A stretch of 64,000 nucleotides of DNA from an uncultured Acidimicrobiia bacterium (GTDB lineage Bacteria > Actinomycetota > Acidimicrobiia > Acidimicrobiales > AC-14). The notes under the pieces are model-generated. The model was not told where the DNA came from. It ran no database searches and saw only the letters and a program-made list of their open reading frames with translations. The position numbers and the translations under genes are program-made. The stretch spans positions 64,001 through 128,000 of the forward strand of contig CAWIIV010000015.1 of NCBI GenBank assembly GCA_963836205.1. The letters are read 5' to 3'. Shown piece by piece: positions 52,948 to 63,901 of the stretch (position 1 is the first letter of the stretch; each line of letters begins with the position of its first letter).

Positions 52948-53351
52948 GCTGAACGCGACGGTGTCCGTCCTCGAGTGCCGGTAGCGGCAGGGAGATAGCC
53001 GCTGATCCTGGCCGTATCGACGCCGTCCCCGCAGCGACACCACCGTGCCGTGGTTCGTCGCCGCGCCGCTGATGTGCCGATCGAGAACGGCGTCCACGGA
53101 GCGATACCCGTCGTCGGCCACGAGCGGGGCCTCGTCAGAGATCCGGCATTCCCTCTCAAGTGCCGCATATTCGATCGGATGCGTATTCGTCAGCGACCGG
53201 TCGGAGGGCTCCTGACCAGCATGTCTGCGTCCCGGCTCCGGCTGTGAGGGTCGTCGATGGCGAGGGCTAGATGGGCTCTGACCTGGGCATTCGCGCGGTG
53301 GTCGCATCAGATGATTGACTCCGTCTTCTATTTCGCGGCCTTGGGGAGAGC

Positions 53352-54464
53352 GTGCAACGCCACATCGAGGTCCGTGGAGCGGCCCAGCTCCACCTGGTTG
53401 ACGACGTCGGGCTGCTCGATCCCGAGGGCCACGTCTTCGAGGCGATGCTCGACGGGTGGCGCTCCCAGCAGCTGAGCCGCAACCTCGCCTTCAGCACCAT
53501 CGACGCCGGGGCCCGGGTGGTGCGCCGCTTCCGGGGCGACGTCGAGGACTGGCCCTGGCGGTGGTCGCCGGGCCAGCTCGAGGGCTGGTCGGCCGAGCGG
53601 CGGGTCGAGCGCCGGTGGGCGCACTCGACGCTGCGGTCCTATCAGCAGTCGTTGCGCTCGTTCCTGGCTTACGTGGTCGACCCCGTCTATGGCTGGGACA
53701 GCGAATGCCTGACCCGCTTCGGGACCCACGCGGTGCAGATCTGCGGGCCCACCAGCGCCGCGGTCCACGTCACCGACTACGAGGGCCGGCCCGGGCGGCG
53801 GTCCCTGACCAGGGCGGAGCTGCAGGCCCTGTTCGACGCGGCCGACGACGCGGTGGCCTCCATCCGCACCCGGGGTCGCAAGGGCTGGGTGCCGGCGTTT
53901 CGCGACGCCACCATGTTGAAGGTCCTCTATGGCTGGGGGCTGCGCCGGCGCGAGGCCCTGATGCTTGAAGCGGCCGACTTCGGCTCCAACCCCCAGGCCC
54001 CGGAGTTCGGCGACTTCGGCGTCTGCTACGTCCGCTGGGGCAAGGCCAGCCGGGGCTCCGCCCCCCGGCGGCGCAGCGTGCTGACGGTGATGGGCTGGAC
54101 GGCGGAGGTCATCGGCGAGTGGGTCAACGACATCTGGCCCCACGTCCGGGCCGACGGCGAGGGTGGCCTGTGGCCGTCGGAGCGCCGGCCCCGGGTCAGC
54201 GCCGACCGCCTCAACGCCGCCTTCGCCCGGGCCGCGGCCGACGCCGGACTGCCGGCCGGGCTGAGCCCGCACTGCCTGCGCCACTCCTACGTGACCCATC
54301 TCATCGAGGACGGCTTCGACGTGCTGTTCGTCCAGCAGCAGGTCGGCCACGAGCACGCCTCGACCACCTCGATCTACACCTCGGTGTCGTCGGACTACAA
54401 GACCCGGGTCCTGCGCGCCGCCCTCGACCGGGTGGTGGCCGAGGCCAAAGGAGCCACGCCGTGA
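53352..54464 (+). CDS. Tyrosine recombinase/integrase (intact catalytic residues)
   Basis: YGWGLRRRE (R), GKAS (K), HCLRH (HxxR), QVGH (H), TTSIY (Y). Confidence 0.93.
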   Translation: MQRHIEVRGAAQLHLVDDVGLLDPEGHVFEAMLDGWRSQQLSRNLAFSTIDAGARVVRRFRGDVEDWPWRWSPGQLEGWSAERRVERRWAHSTLRSYQQSLRSFLAYVVDPVYGWDSECLTRFGTHAVQICGPTSAAVHVTDYEGRPGRRSLTRAELQALFDAADDAVASIRTRGRKGWVPAFRDATMLKVLYGWGLRRREALMLEAADFGSNPQAPEFGDFGVCYVRWGKASRGSAPRRRSVLTVMGWTAEVIGEWVNDIWPHVRADGEGGLWPSERRPRVSADRLNAAFARAAADAGLPAGLSPHCLRHSYVTHLIEDGFDVLFVQQQVGHEHASTTSIYTSVSSDYKTRVLRAALDRVVAEAKGATP

Positions 54465-54790
54465 AACGCAGCGTCGCCTATCGCTGGGCCCTGCGGGAGG
54501 TGATGGCCACCCACGGTCTGTGGAAGACCTCCGACCTGGCCCCGCTGCTGGCGGAGCGGGGCGTGGAGCTGTCCCCGGCCCAGGTCTACCGCCTGGTGGC
54601 CCGCACCCCCGAGCGCCTGTCGCTGCCCACCCTGGCCGCCCTGTGCGACATCTTCGCCTGCACCCCCGCCGACCTCATCGAGTGCTCCGTCGTGCCCACC
54701 GGAGCGAAAAAGCCCAGCCCAGCGGGGTCGGTGGTCGACCTCGCCGCCGTCGGTCGACCCCGCCGGGCGCGTGTCGGGCCGCCGGGGTGA
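54461..54790 (+). CDS. Cro/C1-type HTH DNA-binding protein
   Basis: WALREVMA...SDLAPLLAERGVELSPAQVYRLV...LAALCDIFACTPADLI; GTGA overlaps at both ends. Confidence 0.88.
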   Translation: MKRSVAYRWALREVMATHGLWKTSDLAPLLAERGVELSPAQVYRLVARTPERLSLPTLAALCDIFACTPADLIECSVVPTGAKKPSPAGSVVDLAAVGRPRRARVGPPG

Positions 54791-56202
54791 GCGTCTCCGG
54801 GGCGGCGTCGGCGGCGACGACGCCGGCCCGTGCGTGCTCGCTGTGCGGTTCGTCCGCCGACATGAAACGGCAGCGGCTGGTGTGTGCCCGCTGCCGTCTG
54901 CGCCACCTCAGCGTGGAGGTTCTCGACGACGGCCACGGCTGCGTCGACGCCCGCCTCCTCGGCCTGCACGAGGGGCTGTGCGCCATGGCCGTGCCCCACA
55001 ACGGCCGGTGCTGGCTCGGCCAGCCCGCGGTGCGGGAGCGGCTCCGTCGCCTCGTCAGCGGCGAGGTCGCCCTCACCCACGACGGCGTCGACACCCTGGC
55101 CGCCGGGCTCGGGCGGGAGTACCTGCGCGAGCTGCTGGTGGCGCACCGGGTCCTGCCGGCGAGGGACAAGTACCTGGCCGCCTTCGAGCGCTGGACGACG
55201 ACCCGCCTCGACACCGTCCCCGCCGGCGAGGACCGCCAGCTGATCCGCACCTACCTGGCCTGGCACCACCACCGCCGGCTGCGGGAGCGGGCCGAGCTCG
55301 GCCTCCTGCACGAGTCGACGGCCCAGTCCGCCCGCCAGCAGACCAACGTCGCCGTCGCCTTCCTGGCCCGGCTGGCGGAGCGGGGCCGGTCCTTGGCCGA
55401 CTGCCGCCAGGCCGACATCGACGAGTGGTTCGCCACCGGCACCACCACCCGCTGGGCCCTGCGGAACTTCCTCACCTGGGCCATCGTCCAGCGGCGCTGT
55501 CCGGCGCTGGAGGTTCCCCGCTACCGGGGCCGCAGCGCCCCGGCACTGTCCCAGCAGGTCCGCCTGGTGATCCTCAACCGGCTCTTCACCGACACCGACG
55601 TCGAGCTGTCCGACCGCGTCGCCGGCTGCCTGGTGCTCATCTACGCCCAGCCCATCGCCCGCATCCGGACCCTCACCGTCGACGACCTCGACCGCCGGGG
55701 CCAGGAGACGTGGATCCGCTTCGCCCGGGAGCACGTGCCCCTGCCCGAGCCCGTCGGCGAGCTGGCCACCACGCTGGCCGCCACCGCCCGGCGCAACATG
55801 GCCACCGCCGCCAACCCGACCTCGCCCTGGCTGTTCCCGGGCCGGGCACCCACCCAGGCGGTGCAGGCCGAGCAGCTCGCGGAGCGCCTCGCCCGCCTCG
55901 GCATCTCCCGCGTCGGTCGGTTGGCTGCGCTCAACAGCCTCGTCGCCCAGGTGCCCGGTCCCGTCCTCGGACAGCTCATCGGCTACAGCGCCACGATCAT
56001 CGCCCAGCACGCCTCCGCGCAGGGCGTCGACTGGGCCTCCTACGCCGCCCTCAAGTCCCCGGCGAACGGGCTCACTGACCGCGATTACGCACGACTCGAA
56101 TATGCGTCTCTACCAATCGGCTGGCCCGGACAGTCGACACGGAGCATCCTGGGGCGGGTGGACGGATTCTTCCTTGGGGGTTCGATCGCCCCCATGGGCT
56201 GA
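54787..56202 (+). CDS. Zn-finger plus degenerate tyrosine-recombinase-like protein
   Basis: CxxC...CxxC N-terminus; LIYAQPIARIRTLTVDDL, WLFPG, LGQLIGYS resemble a YR fold lacking the catalytic R/H/Y. Confidence 0.75.
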   Translation: MSVSGAASAATTPARACSLCGSSADMKRQRLVCARCRLRHLSVEVLDDGHGCVDARLLGLHEGLCAMAVPHNGRCWLGQPAVRERLRRLVSGEVALTHDGVDTLAAGLGREYLRELLVAHRVLPARDKYLAAFERWTTTRLDTVPAGEDRQLIRTYLAWHHHRRLRERAELGLLHESTAQSARQQTNVAVAFLARLAERGRSLADCRQADIDEWFATGTTTRWALRNFLTWAIVQRRCPALEVPRYRGRSAPALSQQVRLVILNRLFTDTDVELSDRVAGCLVLIYAQPIARIRTLTVDDLDRRGQETWIRFAREHVPLPEPVGELATTLAATARRNMATAANPTSPWLFPGRAPTQAVQAEQLAERLARLGISRVGRLAALNSLVAQVPGPVLGQLIGYSATIIAQHASAQGVDWASYAALKSPANGLTDRDYARLEYASLPIGWPGQSTRSILGRVDGFFLGGSIAPMG

Positions 56203-56772
56203 CCGTCAGCTTCCTCGCCTCACCAGCCGGCCTCCTCGTCGAGGAGTTGATCGCGTGGCGCCGTGGCCTAGGTCAGCGCGTCGAGCAGAGTGCCCCGTCG
56301 GTCCTGCCCGATTGCGCCGCGGCTCTTGATCCCCTCGAGTCGCCATGGACGACCGAGCCACTGGTCGATTGCGGAGGATGGTCCGCGTGCCTGAACAACG
56401 GCATCGACGGCGGTGACCCGACCGCTGCCGCCCCGTACCTCTCCAGCCGCCTCCAAGTGGACTGCGTGATCGCGACGCATGCTCCTCGCCACGCTCCGGG
56501 ACACGCGCCACTCAGCTCTGGTTGCTTGGGCCCGACGGAGAACCGCCGCTCATGCACAAACGCACCCTCGCCGCCCACGCCGAGGACGGCCGCTGGTCGT
56601 GGCACGAAGCCGGGTCGCCTCAGCCGTTTGAGCAGCTGGATCGGTACCGTGCGCGGCTGATCAAAAGCCGGTTCGACCGCCTTCTTCTCGTGCAGTACCT
56701 GTCCGCTCTCGGTATTCACGTCCATGACGCAGGCTTCTACGGGAAGGGAATCGCAGTACGCCAACGAGTGAC

Positions 56773-58202
56773 GGTCACGTCCACGGACGTGGTGTATGAC
56801 CACCACCACGTCAACCTCGGGGACTTGTTTACCCCACCTTGGCCAGGTCGGTGTCGTTGGTCGTGTCATCGAGCCCTCCGTCGATGACGATCATTCGGGC
56901 CTTGGCCAGCAGCTCGGGGGACATGTAGCGCCGGGCGACGGCCCACTCGTCGTTCTGCTCGGCCAGCACTGCCCCCACGAGGCGGATCACGGCGGCCCGG
57001 TTGGGGAAGATGCCGACCACGTCGGTGCGCCGGCGCAGCTCCTTGTTGAGCCGCTCCTGGGGGTTGTTGGACCAGATCTGGCGCCAGTGCTCCTTGGGGA
57101 AGGTGGTGAAGGCCAACAGGTCCGCCCGGGCGTCGATGAGCATCCCGGCGGCCTCGGGGTACTTGGCCACCAGCTGTTCCACCACCCGGGCGTGCTGAGC
57201 GACGACCTGGGTGGCATCGGGCTGCTCGAAGATGGTGCGCACCCCCGTGGCCACCATGGTCTGGGCCGAGCGGGGCACCTTGGAGAGCAGGTTGCGCACG
57301 AAGTGGGTCCGGCAGCGCTGCCAGGTGGCGCCCGGCAGCACCCCCGCGATGGCGGCCTTGAGGCCCTCGTGGGCGTCGGAGACGACGAGGCACACCCCCG
57401 ACAGGCCCCGGGCCACCAGTCCCCGCAGGAACGTCGTCCAGCCTGCTCCCGTCTCGGTGGTGAACACGTCCATGCCCAGGATCTCCCGGTGCCCGTCGGC
57501 GTTGACGCCGCAGGCCACGGCGCAGGCGATGTTGACGATGCGGCCCTCCTCCCGCACCTTCTGGGTCAGCGCGTCGATGGCCACGTAGGCGTAGGGCCCG
57601 GCGTCGAGGGGCCGGGAGCGGAAGGCGTCGACGGCGGCGTCGAGGCTGCGGGCCATCTCCGAGACCTGGGACTTGGAGATCCCGTCGATGCCCATGGACT
57701 GCACCAGGGCGTCCACCCGCCGGGTCGACACGCCGGCCACGTAGGCCTCGGCCACCACCGCCACCAGGGCCTTCTCCGCCCGCCGGCGGGGCTCGAGCAG
57801 CCAGTCGGGGAAGTAGCTGCCCGAGCGCAGCTTGGGCACGGCCAACTCGATGGTGCCGGCCCGGGTGTCGAAGCCACGGCCGCGGTAGCCGTTGCGGGAG
57901 TTCACCCGCTCCGGGCTGCGCTCGCCCCAGGCCGCGCCGCAGGCGTTGTCGGCCTCGGCCGACATGAGCTGCTCGGCGAAGACCTTGACCATGTCGCGGA
58001 TGACGTCGTTGCCGCCCTCGCCGTCGATGTGCTTGCGCAGCCAGGCGAGTGCGCTAAAGGTGTCAGGGACCACCGTGTTCCTCCTCAGTTGGTTGCTTGG
58101 TCTCTTCCTTCTGAGGTTGACGCGGTGGTCGTCGCGTCGGGGGGATGGTCAGGCCGTCAGGCCCTCAGCGCCGACTCGTACACCACGTCTGTGGACGCAA
58201 CT
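56773..58202 (-). mobile_element. IS256 family element (1430 bp)
   Basis: ~27-bp imperfect TIRs GGTCACGTCCACGGACGTGGTGTATGA / rc AGTTGCGTCCACAGACGTGGTGTACGA; 9-bp TSD ACGAGTGAC (56764-72, 58203-11). Confidence 0.92.
56829..58073 (-). CDS. IS256 family transposase
   Basis: RNGYR, VPKLRSGSYFP, IDA, SDAHEGL, WQRCRTHF, SNNPQERLNKELRRRT. Confidence 0.95.
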   Translation of the reverse strand: MVPDTFSALAWLRKHIDGEGGNDVIRDMVKVFAEQLMSAEADNACGAAWGERSPERVNSRNGYRGRGFDTRAGTIELAVPKLRSGSYFPDWLLEPRRRAEKALVAVVAEAYVAGVSTRRVDALVQSMGIDGISKSQVSEMARSLDAAVDAFRSRPLDAGPYAYVAIDALTQKVREEGRIVNIACAVACGVNADGHREILGMDVFTTETGAGWTTFLRGLVARGLSGVCLVVSDAHEGLKAAIAGVLPGATWQRCRTHFVRNLLSKVPRSAQTMVATGVRTIFEQPDATQVVAQHARVVEQLVAKYPEAAGMLIDARADLLAFTTFPKEHWRQIWSNNPQERLNKELRRRTDVVGIFPNRAAVIRLVGAVLAEQNDEWAVARRYMSPELLAKARMIVIDGGLDDTTNDTDLAKVG

Positions 58203-58544: not shown

Positions 58545-60003
58545 GAGGATGTCCCGAGTTCCGTGGAACTTCGGTGGCGGCCCCGATGATCAGGCGGCTA
58601 CTTCCCCATCCTCGCACGGGGGTGCGACAACCTTCGTGACGTGAGCGTCAAGGGCGGTCCGGAGGGCGGGCAGGTGGAGAAATCCGTTCACCCGGCGGAA
58701 CTGCTTGGCCGCCTCCACCATGCCCGCCGCACACCAGCGCAGCGCCATCGTCCCGTCCCGCCAGCGCTTCACGTTGGTCGAGTGATCCCGGCAGATCTCG
58801 ATCATCGACTCGATGGCGTTGGTCGAGCGCAGCGTTCGGGCCAGCGTCGGCGGCACCCCGAGGCGGCTGACGGTGAGCGTCTCGGCCAGGCCCTCCCGCA
58901 GGCTGCCAGCGGCACCGGGGTGGCCCTTGTCCAGATCCCGGGCCAGGGCTTCGAGTGTCGCCTCGGCGGCCAACGCGTCAGCGTCGTGGTAGGCCGCTCG
59001 CATCTTGCGGGCCACCGTGGCCGCCATGTCCTTGGGCAGTCGCGACTCGACATTGCGGATCTTGTGGAGCTGGCAACGAGCCACGACCGGGTGGTCGAAC
59101 ACCGCCTTGACCGCCGCCACCAGCGCCTTTGCCCCGTCGAGCACGCACAGGATGGGCCTGGTGGTGTCCAGGCCCCGATCCCGAAGGCCGGTGAGGAGGT
59201 CCTTGACGATGGTGGCGTTCTCGGTGTCGCCCTCCACCACCCCGAGCGGGTGCTTCGTCCCGTCGATGCCGATCCCCAGTGCCACCACGCAGACGTGGTC
59301 CGCGAAGTGCACGCCGTCGATCATCAGCGCCACCAGGTCGAGGCCCGACAGGTCGGCGGCCAACATGGTGGCCAGGGCCGATTCGGTGGCGGTCACGAAC
59401 CGCCGGCTGACCGCCGACTTCGACTTCGATCGAGCTGCTGCCTCGACCCCGGTGCCGACCGGCTCGAGTCCGGCCGAGTACCGCCGAGTCGACAGCTTGG
59501 CCATCATGCGCTCCAGCGCCATCGAATCGAGCAGCTCGGTGGAGGCGAACAGGTCGTAGGCCGGCACCGCCACCTCGGCGGTTCCGTCCACGCTGCGCAT
59601 GCGCGGCCGCTGCACCGGCAACCGCCGCCCGCCGAGGGTCACCGAGCCGTCCTCGGTTCCGTGGCGGACGGCGGTTCGATCGGGATCATGGACGCCCTTG
59701 GGCCCGCAGGCGGCGGTGACGCTCTCCTGCATCATCACGTGCATGACCTGCAGCCCAGCCCCGACGGCCAAGGCGAGAAGGCCCTCGCGCACTGTCTCGG
59801 CCAGCTCGGCCATGGCCAGGCTCACGGTGTCGGGCAGGGCGAGCTCGGCGGTCGCCGCGTGCGCGGCCTTGGTCTGATAGTTCTTCTTCACTGGCGGTCC
59901 CCTCGCTGGTCGAGTGACTTGGCGGTCGCCCGACACCTACCATCCGGCAGGTCTCAGGCGGGGGACCGCCACCTCAAACTTCTACGACGACCGGGACAAC
60001 CCT
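58545..60003 (-). mobile_element. IS256 family element (1459 bp)
   Basis: Imperfect TIRs GAGGATGTCCCG... / rc AGGGTTGTCCCG...; TSD AGCGGGGC (58537-44, 60004-11). Confidence 0.9.
58590..59891 (-). CDS. IS256 family transposase
   Basis: LMIDG, VLDGAKAL, RCQLHK, RSTNAIES. Confidence 0.93.
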   Translation of the reverse strand: MKKNYQTKAAHAATAELALPDTVSLAMAELAETVREGLLALAVGAGLQVMHVMMQESVTAACGPKGVHDPDRTAVRHGTEDGSVTLGGRRLPVQRPRMRSVDGTAEVAVPAYDLFASTELLDSMALERMMAKLSTRRYSAGLEPVGTGVEAAARSKSKSAVSRRFVTATESALATMLAADLSGLDLVALMIDGVHFADHVCVVALGIGIDGTKHPLGVVEGDTENATIVKDLLTGLRDRGLDTTRPILCVLDGAKALVAAVKAVFDHPVVARCQLHKIRNVESRLPKDMAATVARKMRAAYHDADALAAEATLEALARDLDKGHPGAAGSLREGLAETLTVSRLGVPPTLARTLRSTNAIESMIEICRDHSTNVKRWRDGTMALRWCAAGMVEAAKQFRRVNGFLHLPALRTALDAHVTKVVAPPCEDGEVAA

Positions 60004-60672: not shown

Positions 60673-62073
60673 CTAGGCGCGTCCAAGGTCGATCTCTGTC
60701 CTGACGGTAAAAGGTTCCGATCGTTCTCCTATGTGTCCATCCATGTGCAAGTACACGTTTCCGGTGTGGCCGGGCCCGCCGCTTGGCTCCACCCAATCGA
60801 TGACCGCCTTGGAGAGACGGAACGATGCCACCTCGCCGTAGCGAATCTCACAGTCACCCTCGGCGATGACTTGAGCGTCACCCCGCGGCGGTTCACGCAA
60901 GTCTTCTAGCGCATGTGCCATAGCAAAGAGAACTGCGAGAACATGCGGGTCTTCTGTTGCGTAAGCATTGAGAGTCGAATCGCTAAGTGGACCGATCGGG
61001 AACTCGGCGTTTTCGGCGACTGGCCTTAGGACCTCCAACGCTGCTTGGTCTATAAGTTTGATGATGTTGTCGACCTTCAGCGGTGGTTCAGATAGACGAA
61101 TCCGTTCCGCTGCATCCCCTAACGATGCCACAGCAATGACAGATAGCTCGGCTTCAGTTATGTCGGCGAGGAGTTCGACCGCAAGCCCCTTCGACGGATC
61201 CCTATTTGCGAAGAAGGCCTTGTCCGACGTTACGAATAGTACTTCGTAGTCAGTTGCGAGTTCGAGCACGGCCAACCAGATCAGTGTGTCCTTGTACTGT
61301 TGGTTGTTCTCACCGTTGGGGGGCACCTTGTCGAGCACCCGCCGAAGCGCACTCTGCGCCTGCTTGAACGTGAATGGAACGCGCACCAGGAAGGGTTCCA
61401 GTTCTGTTAGTCGCAACGGAGCGGCGCCGACAAAATCACCCGTCGGTTGGGAGAACAGGTGCGGGGGCTGAGCGGACGACGTAGGCGGTCGAGCCCCGAC
61501 AGTTATGTCGGCGAGGAGTTCGACCGCAAGCCCCTTCGACGGATCCCTATTTGCGAAGAAGGCCTTGTCCGACGTTACGAATAGTACTTCGTAGTCAGTT
61601 GCGAGTTCGAGCACGGCCAACCAGATCAGTGTGTCCTTGTACTGTTGGTTGTTCTCACCGTTGGGGGGCACCTTGTCGAGCACCCGCCGAAGCGCACTCT
61701 GCGCCTGCTTGAACGTGAATGGAACGCGCACCAGGAAGGGTTCCAGTTCTGTTAGTCGCAACGGAGCGGCGCCGACAAAATCACCGTCGGTTGGGAGAAC
61801 AGGTGCGGGGGCTGAGCCCAAGAGACGACGTAGGCGGTCGAGCCCCGACAGAACCCCTTCGCGCGCCTTCCGACCCTCGCTCACGGCGTGAAGCTTGAGT
61901 TCCTCCTCGACGACGTAGGGAAGGCCGAGGACTCCACCCTGTTGCCGTAGCGAGTAGAGGACCGCGGCGGCCGTCGCCGATCGAAGCATGAGATGGGAAA
62001 GCCATTGGTTGGTGTCCAAGACGAGGCACAGTCGCTTGACCCCTACATCATCCGTCGGAACGGTTTCCGGCAT
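60673..62073 (-). CDS. PIN domain protein (DUF4935-like) with internal duplication
   Basis: VLDTN, VEEEL, YKDTLIW, FVTSDKAF; about 95 residues repeated verbatim. Confidence 0.78.
   Translation of the reverse strand: MPETVPTDDVGVKRLCLVLDTNQWLSHLMLRSATAAAVLYSLRQQGGVLGLPYVVEEELKLHAVSEGRKAREGVLSGLDRLRRLLGSAPAPVLPTDGDFVGAAPLRLTELEPFLVRVPFTFKQAQSALRRVLDKVPPNGENNQQYKDTLIWLAVLELATDYEVLFVTSDKAFFANRDPSKGLAVELLADITVGARPPTSSAQPPHLFSQPTGDFVGAAPLRLTELEPFLVRVPFTFKQAQSALRRVLDKVPPNGENNQQYKDTLIWLAVLELATDYEVLFVTSDKAFFANRDPSKGLAVELLADITEAELSVIAVASLGDAAERIRLSEPPLKVDNIIKLIDQAALEVLRPVAENAEFPIGPLSDSTLNAYATEDPHVLAVLFAMAHALEDLREPPRGDAQVIAEGDCEIRYGEVASFRLSKAVIDWVEPSGGPGHTGNVYLHMDGHIGERSEPFTVRTEIDLGRA
61155..61848. repeat. 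Near-perfect tandem duplication (345 bp + 349 bp)
   Basis: 61155-61499 vs 61500-61848, identical except for indels near the ends. Confidence 0.9.
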
Positions 62074-62543
62074 GCCTGCGCTTTCGCTTCCCTCCACATC
62101 GAGAGTCTGCCGTGTGTGATGTCGCCGCGCTCCTGAATGGCAGGATCCGTCCGGTTCGGCGTGTCCCGAAGCGTCCGTGCAGGTGGCCAGGCCGATGCCG
62201 GAGTGACGGTGCTGGCGGGGTTGTAGCCGAAGAACTGCTCGCAGAAGGCCCCGAGTCCGCGGATGGCCCGGGCGGGCCGGATGGACGGCCTGGTAGCGCC
62301 GATCGCGGACCTCTCCGCTGCTGGGACGCGCTACTGGGCGGGAGGTTCCACTCGGTACTCGGCCGATCTGCTTGAGATGGAGATCGATAGCGGGCACCGG
62401 TGGAGCGTCCAAGTAGAGTCTCCGACGGCTGCGCAACCGGGCACCGCCGTTCGGGCCACCGACAGCGAAGGTCGCGAAGGGGCAACCCGCACTCTTGGTT
62501 GCCCATCCCAACAGCGGCCGAGATTTTCGGCAAGCATAAGGGC

Positions 62544-63901
62544 ATGGGGCCAGCGAACACACCTGACCGGACCCCGGCCATCGATCAACCGGTGACGAGT
62601 TACCTAGCGCCCTGGGTAATTCGTAGGGCTTCGGTTGTTGTTACAATCGGAGCGGCGGCCGCGACGGTTGTGTTGGTTATCGCGCTCGTACACCCTGAGA
62701 TGTTCGTCACAGGACTTTCTGCACTCCTTCAGCCCAAGGAGCGTGCGGACATTCTGGCATCTGGCCGCGACTTCGGCCTAAAGCTGGCAGCAGGACTTGG
62801 GGCGGTTGCCGGCGCGATCTTGGCGTGGGGACGCCTTCGCTCGCCCACGAGGAGCGTAAGGTGGCGCGCCGCGTTCTTGCGGGCCAGCAAGCCACCATCG
62901 ACGCCCAACGTCTCACCTTAGATGTTGAGCGTTTCGCCGGAGCTGTAGATCAGATGGGGAGTGAGAGAGGTCCTTATGTCGTGCTCGGTGGACTCTACGC
63001 ACTTGAGGCGTTTGCCACTTCAGCCGTAACATATCAGAGTCAAATAACTGAGCTGTTGTCTGCGTTTGTGAGAGAGCAGGTACGAAACCGACCTCGCCGT
63101 CCACTAACAGTGATCGAAGTGGCAGCGCTTACGATTCTCGGCCGCAATCCCGCGTGGCAAGGAAGGATTGATCTGAACGGCGCGGACCTCGGCGGCGGGA
63201 ACTTCGGCAATATTGACTTCTCCGGCGCTAACTTTACCAGCGCCGATCTAACCGATGTCGAGCTAATAGGCGCCAGCTTAGTCGGCGTCGACTTCTCCTG
63301 CGCCAAGCTGGTCAGTGTCAATCTCGCCGACGCTATCCTAACCAATGCCGATTTCGTAGACGCCGACCTTAGCGGCGCCGTCCTGATTAACGCTGACCTC
63401 GCCGGTGCAACATTCGTGCACGCCAAACTCACCAATGGAAAGCTGGCGAACGCGAGGTTCGGGAATGCCACCTTCATGAGCGCTGACCTCACTGGTGCTC
63501 AACTCTCCAATGGTGTCCTTACGCATGCCACGCTCGAGGGCGCGATATTCACTCGCGCCGACCTTTCTCACGCCGACCTCACGGGCGCCTACCTCGATAG
63601 CACCGCCCTACGCGAAGCGACCCTTGTGAGCGCAGTCCTTGCCGACGCAGACCTGACCCGCGCTGACCTGACGAGGGCCAACCTAAGCCGCGCCAATCTC
63701 TCTGGTGCGAACCTTCACCGAGCCAATCTGACCCACGCTGACCTCACTCACGCTGACCTCACAAATGCTGATCTCAGCAACGCCGACGTGAGTGGAGCGG
63801 ACTTCACCGGCGCCATTCTGACCGATACCGACCTCGATGGCACAACCTGGAGATCCGAGCTAAGCCCGGTATGGCCGAATGGGTTCAAACCACGGCCGTG
63901 A
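62544..63901 (+). CDS. Membrane-anchored pentapeptide-repeat protein (1-bp frameshift near 62838)
   Basis: 2 TM helices (…AILAWGRL), then in another frame ERFAGAVDQMGS...LGGLYALE and many A(D/N)Lxx repeats. Confidence 0.82.

Follow-up and report, generated by a model that had tools for sequence, protein, structure and literature searches.

A 3-kb unit with a tyrosine recombinase, a helix-turn-helix protein and a degenerate recombinase-like protein occurs at different genomic places and belongs to a widespread family in Actinomycetota

Within a 64,000-nt stretch of high-GC DNA from an uncultured Acidimicrobiia bacterium (contig CAWIIV010000015.1, positions 64,001 to 128,000; this whole stretch is called the window below, and positions are counted from its first letter), we identify a discrete unit of ~2,961 bp at 53158–56118 on the forward strand (limits ± ~3 nt on the left and ~2 nt on the right) that is found at different genomic places. 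It carries three overlapping open reading frames (ORFs), which encode a Xer-like tyrosine recombinase (YR), a small helix-turn-helix (HTH) protein, and a zinc-ribbon protein with a degenerate YR fold. We consider it probable, at roughly 0.6, that the unit is an autonomous YR-driven mobile element, in which ORF1 would act as the catalyst and ORF3 as its partner, and which would leave its site as a circle and integrate site-specifically; the element belongs to a widespread, seemingly undescribed family within the multi-protein YR transposons. YR-driven transposons (Tn554, RIT, and the SE/GInt group, SE standing for strand-biased circularizing element) are few and poorly understood, and the roles of the extra recombinase-like proteins that they encode are mostly unknown. 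Members of the family described here are 3 kb long, carry no cargo, have sharp ends and a readable target motif, and are common in culturable, tractable actinobacteria, traits that make them a convenient system in which to study the cooperation between a catalytic YR and a degenerate YR-fold partner and the encoding of target choice.

The case for mobility begins with independent copies of the unit. A congeneric genome (G001) contains, on a 328-kb contig (locus L009), a copy that is 99.26% identical over window 53143–56120 and has unrelated sequence on both flanks. Copies of ~95% identity are present in all four metagenome runs (X1 to X4, examined as assembled contigs), where the matches begin at 53155–53158 and end at 56118–56120, after which the contigs diverge; small internal joints in these contigs, with sides of 21–24 nt, were treated as noise from other organisms. 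An earlier note on this DNA had drawn the element from repeat to repeat and had proposed to check whether the flanks vary and identity stops at the repeats. Repeats are indeed present at both ends and the flanks do vary, but identity continues 6 nt (left) and 12–14 nt (right) outside them, so that the unit is larger than the repeat-to-repeat span and its true ends lie at ~53158 and ~56118. Empty sites, which that note had proposed to look for, also exist: congeners G006 and G007 hold an orthologue of the L009 left flank (83–87% identity) that runs through the motif CCGGCATT and then continues with no element. A search of relatives for the right flanks of the window copy and of L009 found none, so that no complete empty site could be pieced together from its two sides. 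In run X1, one contig retains just 34 bp from the left end and 51 bp from the right end, set around 565 unrelated bases, and to judge from its sequence this mini-version is likely a non-autonomous derivative.

The same pattern recurs among relatives of ORF3, which we gathered at 11 loci from species-representative genomes and 34 loci from metagenomes. Five near-identical pairs (window/L009, L032/L033, L043/L045, L013/L021, and L042/L048) have their ends inside contigs and lie in unrelated flanks, with units of 2.97–3.3 kb, and loci L025 and L026 show 100% identity along 2,859 bp, then diverge directly after the right end.

Both ends of the unit bear an imperfect, bipartite, inverted repeat of ~26 bp. 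The left repeat (53164–53189, forward strand) consists of box 1, CGCATATTCGA (53164–74), and box 2, TGCGTATTCG (53180–89); the right repeat (56082–56106, reverse strand) consists of an inner box, CGATTACGCA (56082–91), and an outer box, TCGAATATGCG (56096–106), after which a 12-nt tail, TCTCTACCAATC (56107–56118, forward strand), completes the unit. The earlier note had placed these boxes, two of the form GCRTAWTCG at each end, at the same positions, and all of its box coordinates check. The four GCRTAWTCG boxes, two direct at 53165–89 and two on the opposite strand at 56082–105, are moreover the only ones in the window (expected 0.59; 0 of 100 shuffles gave four), and the 11-mer CGCATATTCGA occurs there solely as an inverted pair (at least two occurrences in 2 of 100 shuffles). 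A generic inverted-repeat finder did not return the terminal pair among its 25 longest hits, which are GC-rich chance matches. No direct repeat surrounds the unit, the 7 nt outside each end being unrelated in both the window and L009, which agrees with the absence of a target-site duplication remarked on before.

Bipartite boxed ends are likewise carried by the relatives. A left end with two boxes is found at 17 other loci, and at 23 a right end with two boxes precedes a 12-nt tail that ends in CC-R-R-T-A/C, with flanks that differ past the tail; the search patterns were derived from the same sequences, so these counts describe the family and do not test it. The L042/L048 and L043/L045 subtypes have different end motifs. 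Upstream of ORF1, two blocks, CTGACCTGGGCATYC and GCATCAGATGATTGA (53278–53321, forward strand), are kept in an alignment of 14 upstream regions and form a candidate operator or promoter; GCATCAGATGATTGA contains CATCAGATG (53305–13, as previously placed), the candidate operator of the earlier note, which is conserved across the family. A sigma-70 promoter scan upstream of ORF1 gave no consensus match.

All ORF3 relatives found come from Actinomycetota, and the three-gene order is conserved across Acidimicrobiia and Actinomycetes. The trio stands in the same order, with the ORF2-type gene between the two larger genes, at 9 of the 11 genome loci (of the remaining pair, a contig end truncates one and the other is a fragment only), and the annotated order recombinase–HTH–ORF3-like appears in all three plasmid loci that were opened. 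Among actinobacterial plasmid records, 253 contain ORF3 relatives (Streptomyces 116, Rhodococcus 57, Arthrobacter 19, and others), with five full copies on the Rhodococcus fascians plasmid pGS01. When the phylum is sampled evenly, 20/401 genomes and 15/249 genera have a match at E ≤ 1e-10 (two of the 20 matching genomes are flagged as unpublished). Among the matches listed, 26 of 100 ORF3 relatives have a longest contig of 2.9–3.7 kb, as expected from repeat-collapsed assemblies of a 3-kb element. These relatives are annotated variously as ‘hypothetical’, ‘XerD’, or ‘Fis family’ and belong to no Pfam or NCBIfam family; because they have no family model and are labelled inconsistently, the elements are invisible to current mobile-element finders.

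Two arrangements among the relatives deserve mention in their own right. In L038 (1965–4159) and L037 (4538–4624), a right end is directly abutted by a solo left-end box pair. A tandem of two elements was considered here and rejected, as the following 2.2 kb contains no trio genes and only the solo left-end boxes; the L038 pair is a remnant or a non-autonomous relative. Locus L034 combines the left flank and element of L032 with the right flank of L015, a pattern that suggests recombination between copies at different sites.

Insertion is orientation-specific, linked to a motif, and free of target duplication, and both orthologous and paralogous unoccupied sites exist. On the left, the host flank of the window copy is a ~115-bp, low-copy, conserved non-coding stretch (53044–53157, forward strand) that ends at the insertion point. 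An 83% identical copy of it lies in the same contig just past the end of the window (L002 1501–1614), and further copies are present in congeners G006 (L066), G016 (L067), and G004 (L068), with one or two per genome in the genus; conservation of the stretch ends at or near the junction. Rfam and tRNA scans of window 50–64 kb gave no match, which means that no known RNA gene serves as the target, and a consensus fold of the flank repeat was weak and unconvincing, with a positive covariation term. A coding origin for the motif was rejected, as its copies differ by 1-nt indels, and we set aside a dif site because the motif has no AT-rich centre, unlike dif consensus sequences.

The host-side determinant of the target, a putative B arm, is CCGGCATT (53143–53150, forward strand), 7 nt left of the element. 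In the window subtype, the left junction reads CCGGCAWT, seven variable nt, and then the element’s AAGTGCCG in all four copies whose flank is available (window, L009, X3, and X4; the X3 version of CCGGCATT is CCGGCAAT). The same CCGGCATT stands in the unoccupied sites L090, L091, and L066; since unoccupied orthologues retain it, it is host DNA. CCGGCATT is an inverted repeat of the element’s first bases, AAGTGCCG, which gives the left junction the look of a YR core site whose spacer measures 7 bp. Locus L066, which is without the element, reads CCGGCATT-N7-AAGTGCCGG and is on its sequence a candidate natural target. After AAG it shares five of six nt with the beginning of the element, and the 11 nt left of the junction agree with the element’s last 11 nt before the final C at 7/11 positions in the window, L009, and L066 and at 6/11 in X3. 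The likeness of L066 to the joined ends fits what a site-specific integrase would use.

A second target motif accompanies the L032 subtype, where three different element subtypes lie directly right of TGTGAGG-N5-CTCTAC-N4/5-TCAAG. The motif occurs once or twice per genome (four genomes searched) and is unoccupied in L071 and L075. The elements of L032, L033, and L039 are 99.7–99.9% identical, yet their versions of the motif differ, and all five L032/L033 mismatches fall within it. In L076 (1501–1625, G044:C75), the left-flank motif that ends in TCAAG precedes two copies of GTGATTGCC and, ~60 nt farther on, two inverted copies of GGCAAT; this segment may represent a miniature element belonging to another subtype. 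About 150 nt downstream there is a tRNA-like 3′ end (GGTTCGAGTCC...).

Turning to the proteins, ORF1 (53352–54464, forward strand; 370 aa) has both the catalytic residues and the domain that characterize the tyrosine recombinase superfamily. It matches Pfam Phage_integrase at 3.9e-19 (69.5 bits vs a cut-off of 27.1) and carries the full R-K-HxxR-H-Y set in the motifs GLRRRE, GKAS, HCLRH, and VGH..SIY (Arg, Lys, HxxR, His, and Tyr), which are invariant in seven relatives. Its nearest solved sequences are XerD, IntI4, and XerA, and against the NCBIfam Xer models it reaches 91.9 bits, far under the cut-off of 279. ORF2 (54461–54790, forward strand; 109 aa) is a Cro/C1-type HTH protein (Pfam HTH_26, 5e-17) that overlaps ORF1 at 54461–64 and ORF3 at 54787–90, each time by GTGA, just as the earlier note had read the coupling of the three genes between the repeats. 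A PHROGs search gave no match for either ORF2 or ORF3.

ORF3 (54787–56202, forward strand; 471 aa as read) combines a zinc ribbon and a helical domain with a degenerate YR fold. It reaches the cut-off of no family in Pfam or NCBIfam, Phage_integrase staying below at 14.2 bits (E = 0.038), and the nearest protein atlas clusters are likewise without a family in either database. Aligning 26 relatives brings out N-terminal CxxC pairs (from one to several), a helical region, and a C-terminal part alignable with XerD, which the family profile matches at 4.8e-4. In an AlphaFold2 (AF2) model with a predicted local distance difference test (pLDDT) score of 84.6, all 25 Foldseek hits in the PDB with E ≤ 0.001 are tyrosine recombinases, the best being Cre, XerA, lambda Int, and Tn1549 Int (E 6e-5 to 1e-3), so that both structure comparison and profile assign ORF3 the core-binding and catalytic-domain fold of YRs. 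The active site departs from this pattern. The Arg-I position (R292) is Arg in 21/26 relatives and Lys in two; the hairpin has no conserved Lys; the HxxR motif has become R378 (26/26)-x-x-Ala (23/26); the His/Trp position is Tyr, Phe, or Ile, with Tyr in 17/26; and Tyr419 is kept in 24/26. On the strength of these counts and of the fold, we describe ORF3 as a degenerate YR-fold protein, which may or may not be catalytically competent.

The end of ORF3 in the window requires separate comment. Its stop codon (56200–02) lies 96 nt past 56106, and the earlier note, correct as to these coordinates, had taken the gene to borrow its stop from the target. The read-through is instead a private lesion and not a matter of design: a 2-bp insertion (56060–56061, forward strand) shifts the frame past the native stop, TGA at 56076–78, and it is absent from L009 and from the contigs of X1, X2, and X3 (X4 is also net −2), while ORF3 stops 42–87 nt inside the right end at 16 of 19 loci, the exceptions being the window, L024 (+19 nt), and L009 (a nonsense codon). 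Without the insertion, ORF3 ends in ..YAALKSRERAH at that TGA, as in L009. The frameshift replaces only the last five residues; ~46 residues at the end of the 471 aa are non-native, and AF2 gives a pLDDT below 50 for residues 440–471.

A complex model of ORF1 with ORF3 residues 100–445 scores 0.63 (three runs, 0.62–0.64) vs 0.00 for the best control; this mark is reached by 58/80 solved complexes and by 2/110 mismatched pairs. The runs share at least 56% of contacts, and the partner pLDDT is 74. In the predicted interface, ORF1 residues 345–370, which follow the catalytic Tyr, would rest on the YR-like domain of ORF3. Similar YR assemblies are already solved, and for this reason we read the score as likeness and not as binding.

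From these observations we infer the following mechanism. ORF1, the sole protein with a complete YR active site, would cut and rejoin DNA. ORF3 would pair with it in the synapse by taking up the C-terminal helix of ORF1, in the manner of XerC/XerD or Cre protomers, and would probably bind the unlike right end. ORF2 may act as an architectural factor or an autoregulator by binding either the boxes or the GCATCAGATGA block, which is conserved. The element would leave as a circle in which the right and left ends are joined and the 11-bp outer boxes form inverted arms ~15–18 bp apart, and its site-specific integration would follow at a host sequence that resembles this junction, no identity being needed where crossover takes place. 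Since the two junctions have different crossover regions, the reaction must tolerate non-identical overlaps, as Tn916-type and Tn554/SE-type elements do (in part after PMC10214605). The data would fit either cut-out or copy-out.

Several observations weigh against this picture. The window’s own genome (4.05 Mb in 25 contigs, 88.6% complete) has one copy of the unit; no circular junction, excision product, or transposition event was seen in the runs, which consist of assembled contigs, and none of the ~3-kb contigs examined is circularly permuted. Both near-identical sequenced copies bear a lesion in ORF3, which is frameshifted at its end in the window and interrupted by a nonsense codon in L009, so that they may be inactive at present. 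The right flanks share no motif and the right end has no arm like CCGGCAWT/AAGTGCCG, which speaks neither for a particular crossover point nor for symmetric sites; in the L032 subtype, the likeness of the left flank to the right end is out of register. Finally, a profile–profile comparison detected no sequence relation between ORF3 and ORF1, and the near-invariant Tyr419 together with the invariant R378 would allow that ORF3 is catalytic after all.

This last point leads to the alternative that survives best, although we regard it as unlikely: both YR-fold proteins might be catalytic, as TnpA and TnpB of Tn554 are, with ORF3 cutting one strand pair by means of a non-canonical active site (R292, R378, and Y419). 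The conservation of precisely these three residues, the full YR fold predicted for ORF3, and the two unlike ends, which suggest two unlike DNA-binding subunits, all favor such an arrangement; it sits poorly with a beta-hairpin that has no conserved Lys, with Ala at the Arg-II position, with Tyr, Phe, or Ile at the His/Trp position, with a Tyr419 placed 19 residues after the LGY motif vs 9 residues in ORF1, and with a Phage_integrase match at E = 0.038.

We hold it to be very improbable that the trio is a recombination module of larger islands, integrative and conjugative elements (ICEs), or prophages that does not move by itself. Such a module could account for the five full copies on pGS01, which lie in repeated blocks with other genes between them, for the second partial YR downstream in L017, for the solo left-end box pair that abuts the right end in L038, and for the two IS256-type transposase genes just right of the window copy. 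Five independent pairs nevertheless lose identity within a few nt of the boxed ends and delimit units without cargo, a scan of 10 flanking ORFs in the window showed no domain linked to conjugation or phages, and the frequent longest contigs of about element length count against a larger carrier as well. The earlier note had asked whether such trios always sit inside larger ICEs or prophages; they are instead found as ~3-kb units in varying flanks. A resident, non-mobile site-specific recombination system (for dimer resolution, inversion, or phase variation), with the repeats as its sites, would suit the Xer-like ORF1 and inverted repeats that could in principle allow inversion, and is scarcely credible, being already contradicted by the same unit in unrelated flanks of different genomes and by unoccupied sites, and further disfavored by the patchy distribution (20/401 sampled genomes) and the multiple copies on some plasmids.

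Retaining the autonomous YR-driven element as the preferred reading, we put forward, more tentatively, that the trios could constitute a distinct undescribed class of minimal, cargo-free YR ‘insertion sequences’ of Actinomycetota, with one catalytic YR, a zinc-ribbon pseudo-recombinase partner, an HTH factor, asymmetric ends, and a ~20-bp target; in such a class, the complex may exchange only one strand pair and leave replication to finish the rest, as proposed for SEs.

The surroundings of the copies contain further features. Just right of the element in the window are two IS256-type (Transposase_mut) genes, at 56772–58150 and 58590–59936; the end of the first IS256-type insertion sequence (IS), from window 56772, is 100% identical to four other places in the same genome. 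The variable region to the right of the IS copies encodes a 629-aa PIN_12 domain protein (60673–62562, reverse strand) and a 358-aa pentapeptide-repeat protein (62825–63901, forward strand). At L009 3883–3968, a segment of ~85 bp located ~400 bp left of the copy has 81–86% matches in many contigs from several genomes and is by its pattern a candidate tRNA gene.

How the element relates to known systems can be judged from gene content, ends, and target. PMC10214605 (Table 1) distinguishes five groups of YR-encoding transposons: ICEs together with integrative and mobilizable elements (ICE/IME), SE, GInt, RIT, and Tn554-related elements. The trio lacks the defining gene content of RIT, Tn554, and SE/GInt; with one full YR, an HTH gene in between, and an ORF3 devoid of the Lys and Arg-II, it conforms to neither RIT nor Tn554, as the earlier note had maintained. 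Nor did the note err in supposing a poorly described class of actinobacterial element: a full-text literature search, to which subscription journals did not contribute, turned up no named family and no published account of a YR-HTH-YR-like trio with these ends.

As characterized in PMC10214605 and PMC3414803, Tn554 is a three-gene unit of TnpA and TnpB, both with the RHRY set, and a small TnpC. Our unit resembles Tn554, so described, in having three genes, two for YR-type proteins and one for a small protein, and in inserting site- and orientation-specifically with no target duplication. It differs in that only ORF1 has the full catalytic set (in ORF3, Arg-II is Ala in 23/26 and the His of HxxR is Arg), and in that the small gene encodes a Cro/C1 HTH protein and lies between the large ones, a distinction drawn from descriptions of Tn554. 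The ends also differ, those of our unit being bipartite inverted repeats; Tn554 is not known to have inverted repeats. We looked for a donor footprint of 6–7 bp, which in Tn554 passes from the left flank of the donor to the new right junction. With no donor–recipient pair known, each subtype shows one unchanging right tail, and variation begins in the flank as soon as the tail ends; at the first 2 nt of the flank, the window and L009 agree with each other and not with X2 or X4.

RIT elements, according to PMC10214605, contain three full YRs, each with a catalytic Tyr, and 34-bp repeats. The points of likeness are a compact trio within terminal inverted repeats, YR chemistry, and many phyla, whereas the trio here comprises one canonical YR, one HTH protein, and one degenerate YR-fold zinc-ribbon protein. 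For SE/GInt, the same source gives four core genes (IntA-Tfp-IntB-Srap/GinA-D) with two catalytic YRs, cargo, a 6-bp footprint, and a distribution in Gamma- and Betaproteobacteria (PMC10214605). On that description, a YR-fold protein without RHRY (Tfp, GinC) is needed beside the catalytic YRs, which together with translational coupling and a target-site preference recalls our element; compared by description only, the latter differs in its three genes, its single catalytic YR, and an ORF3 with a conserved Tyr and an N-terminal zinc ribbon.

Van Houdt et al. 2012 report actinobacterial Tn554-related couples of a short and an abnormally long YR, with or without TnpC (PMC3414803). These couples share with our family a place on actinobacterial plasmids and chromosomes, adjacent co-oriented YR genes, and multiple copies. 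On four of the plasmids listed for them, the ORF3 profile found nothing on pRHL3 or on Arthrobacter FB24 plasmid 1 (five full matches on the control, pGS01), one ~110-aa fragment with two stops on pRHL2, and, on pREL1, one distant, decayed locus with a YR fragment, an HTH gene, and an ORF3-like part (E = 1e-10). On these four plasmids the long YR of the couples did not emerge as a homologue of ORF3, a result of indirect mapping that leaves room for distant relatives.

Outside the transposons, the closest parallels are XerC/XerD and Cre. ORF1 is nearest to Xer proteins, and in the complex model its C-terminal segment lies against ORF3’s YR-like domain, which is the cyclic contact that XerC/XerD and Cre tetramers typically make; the system described here differs from them in being borne by a mobile element, in its degenerate partner, and in sites that are not dif-like.

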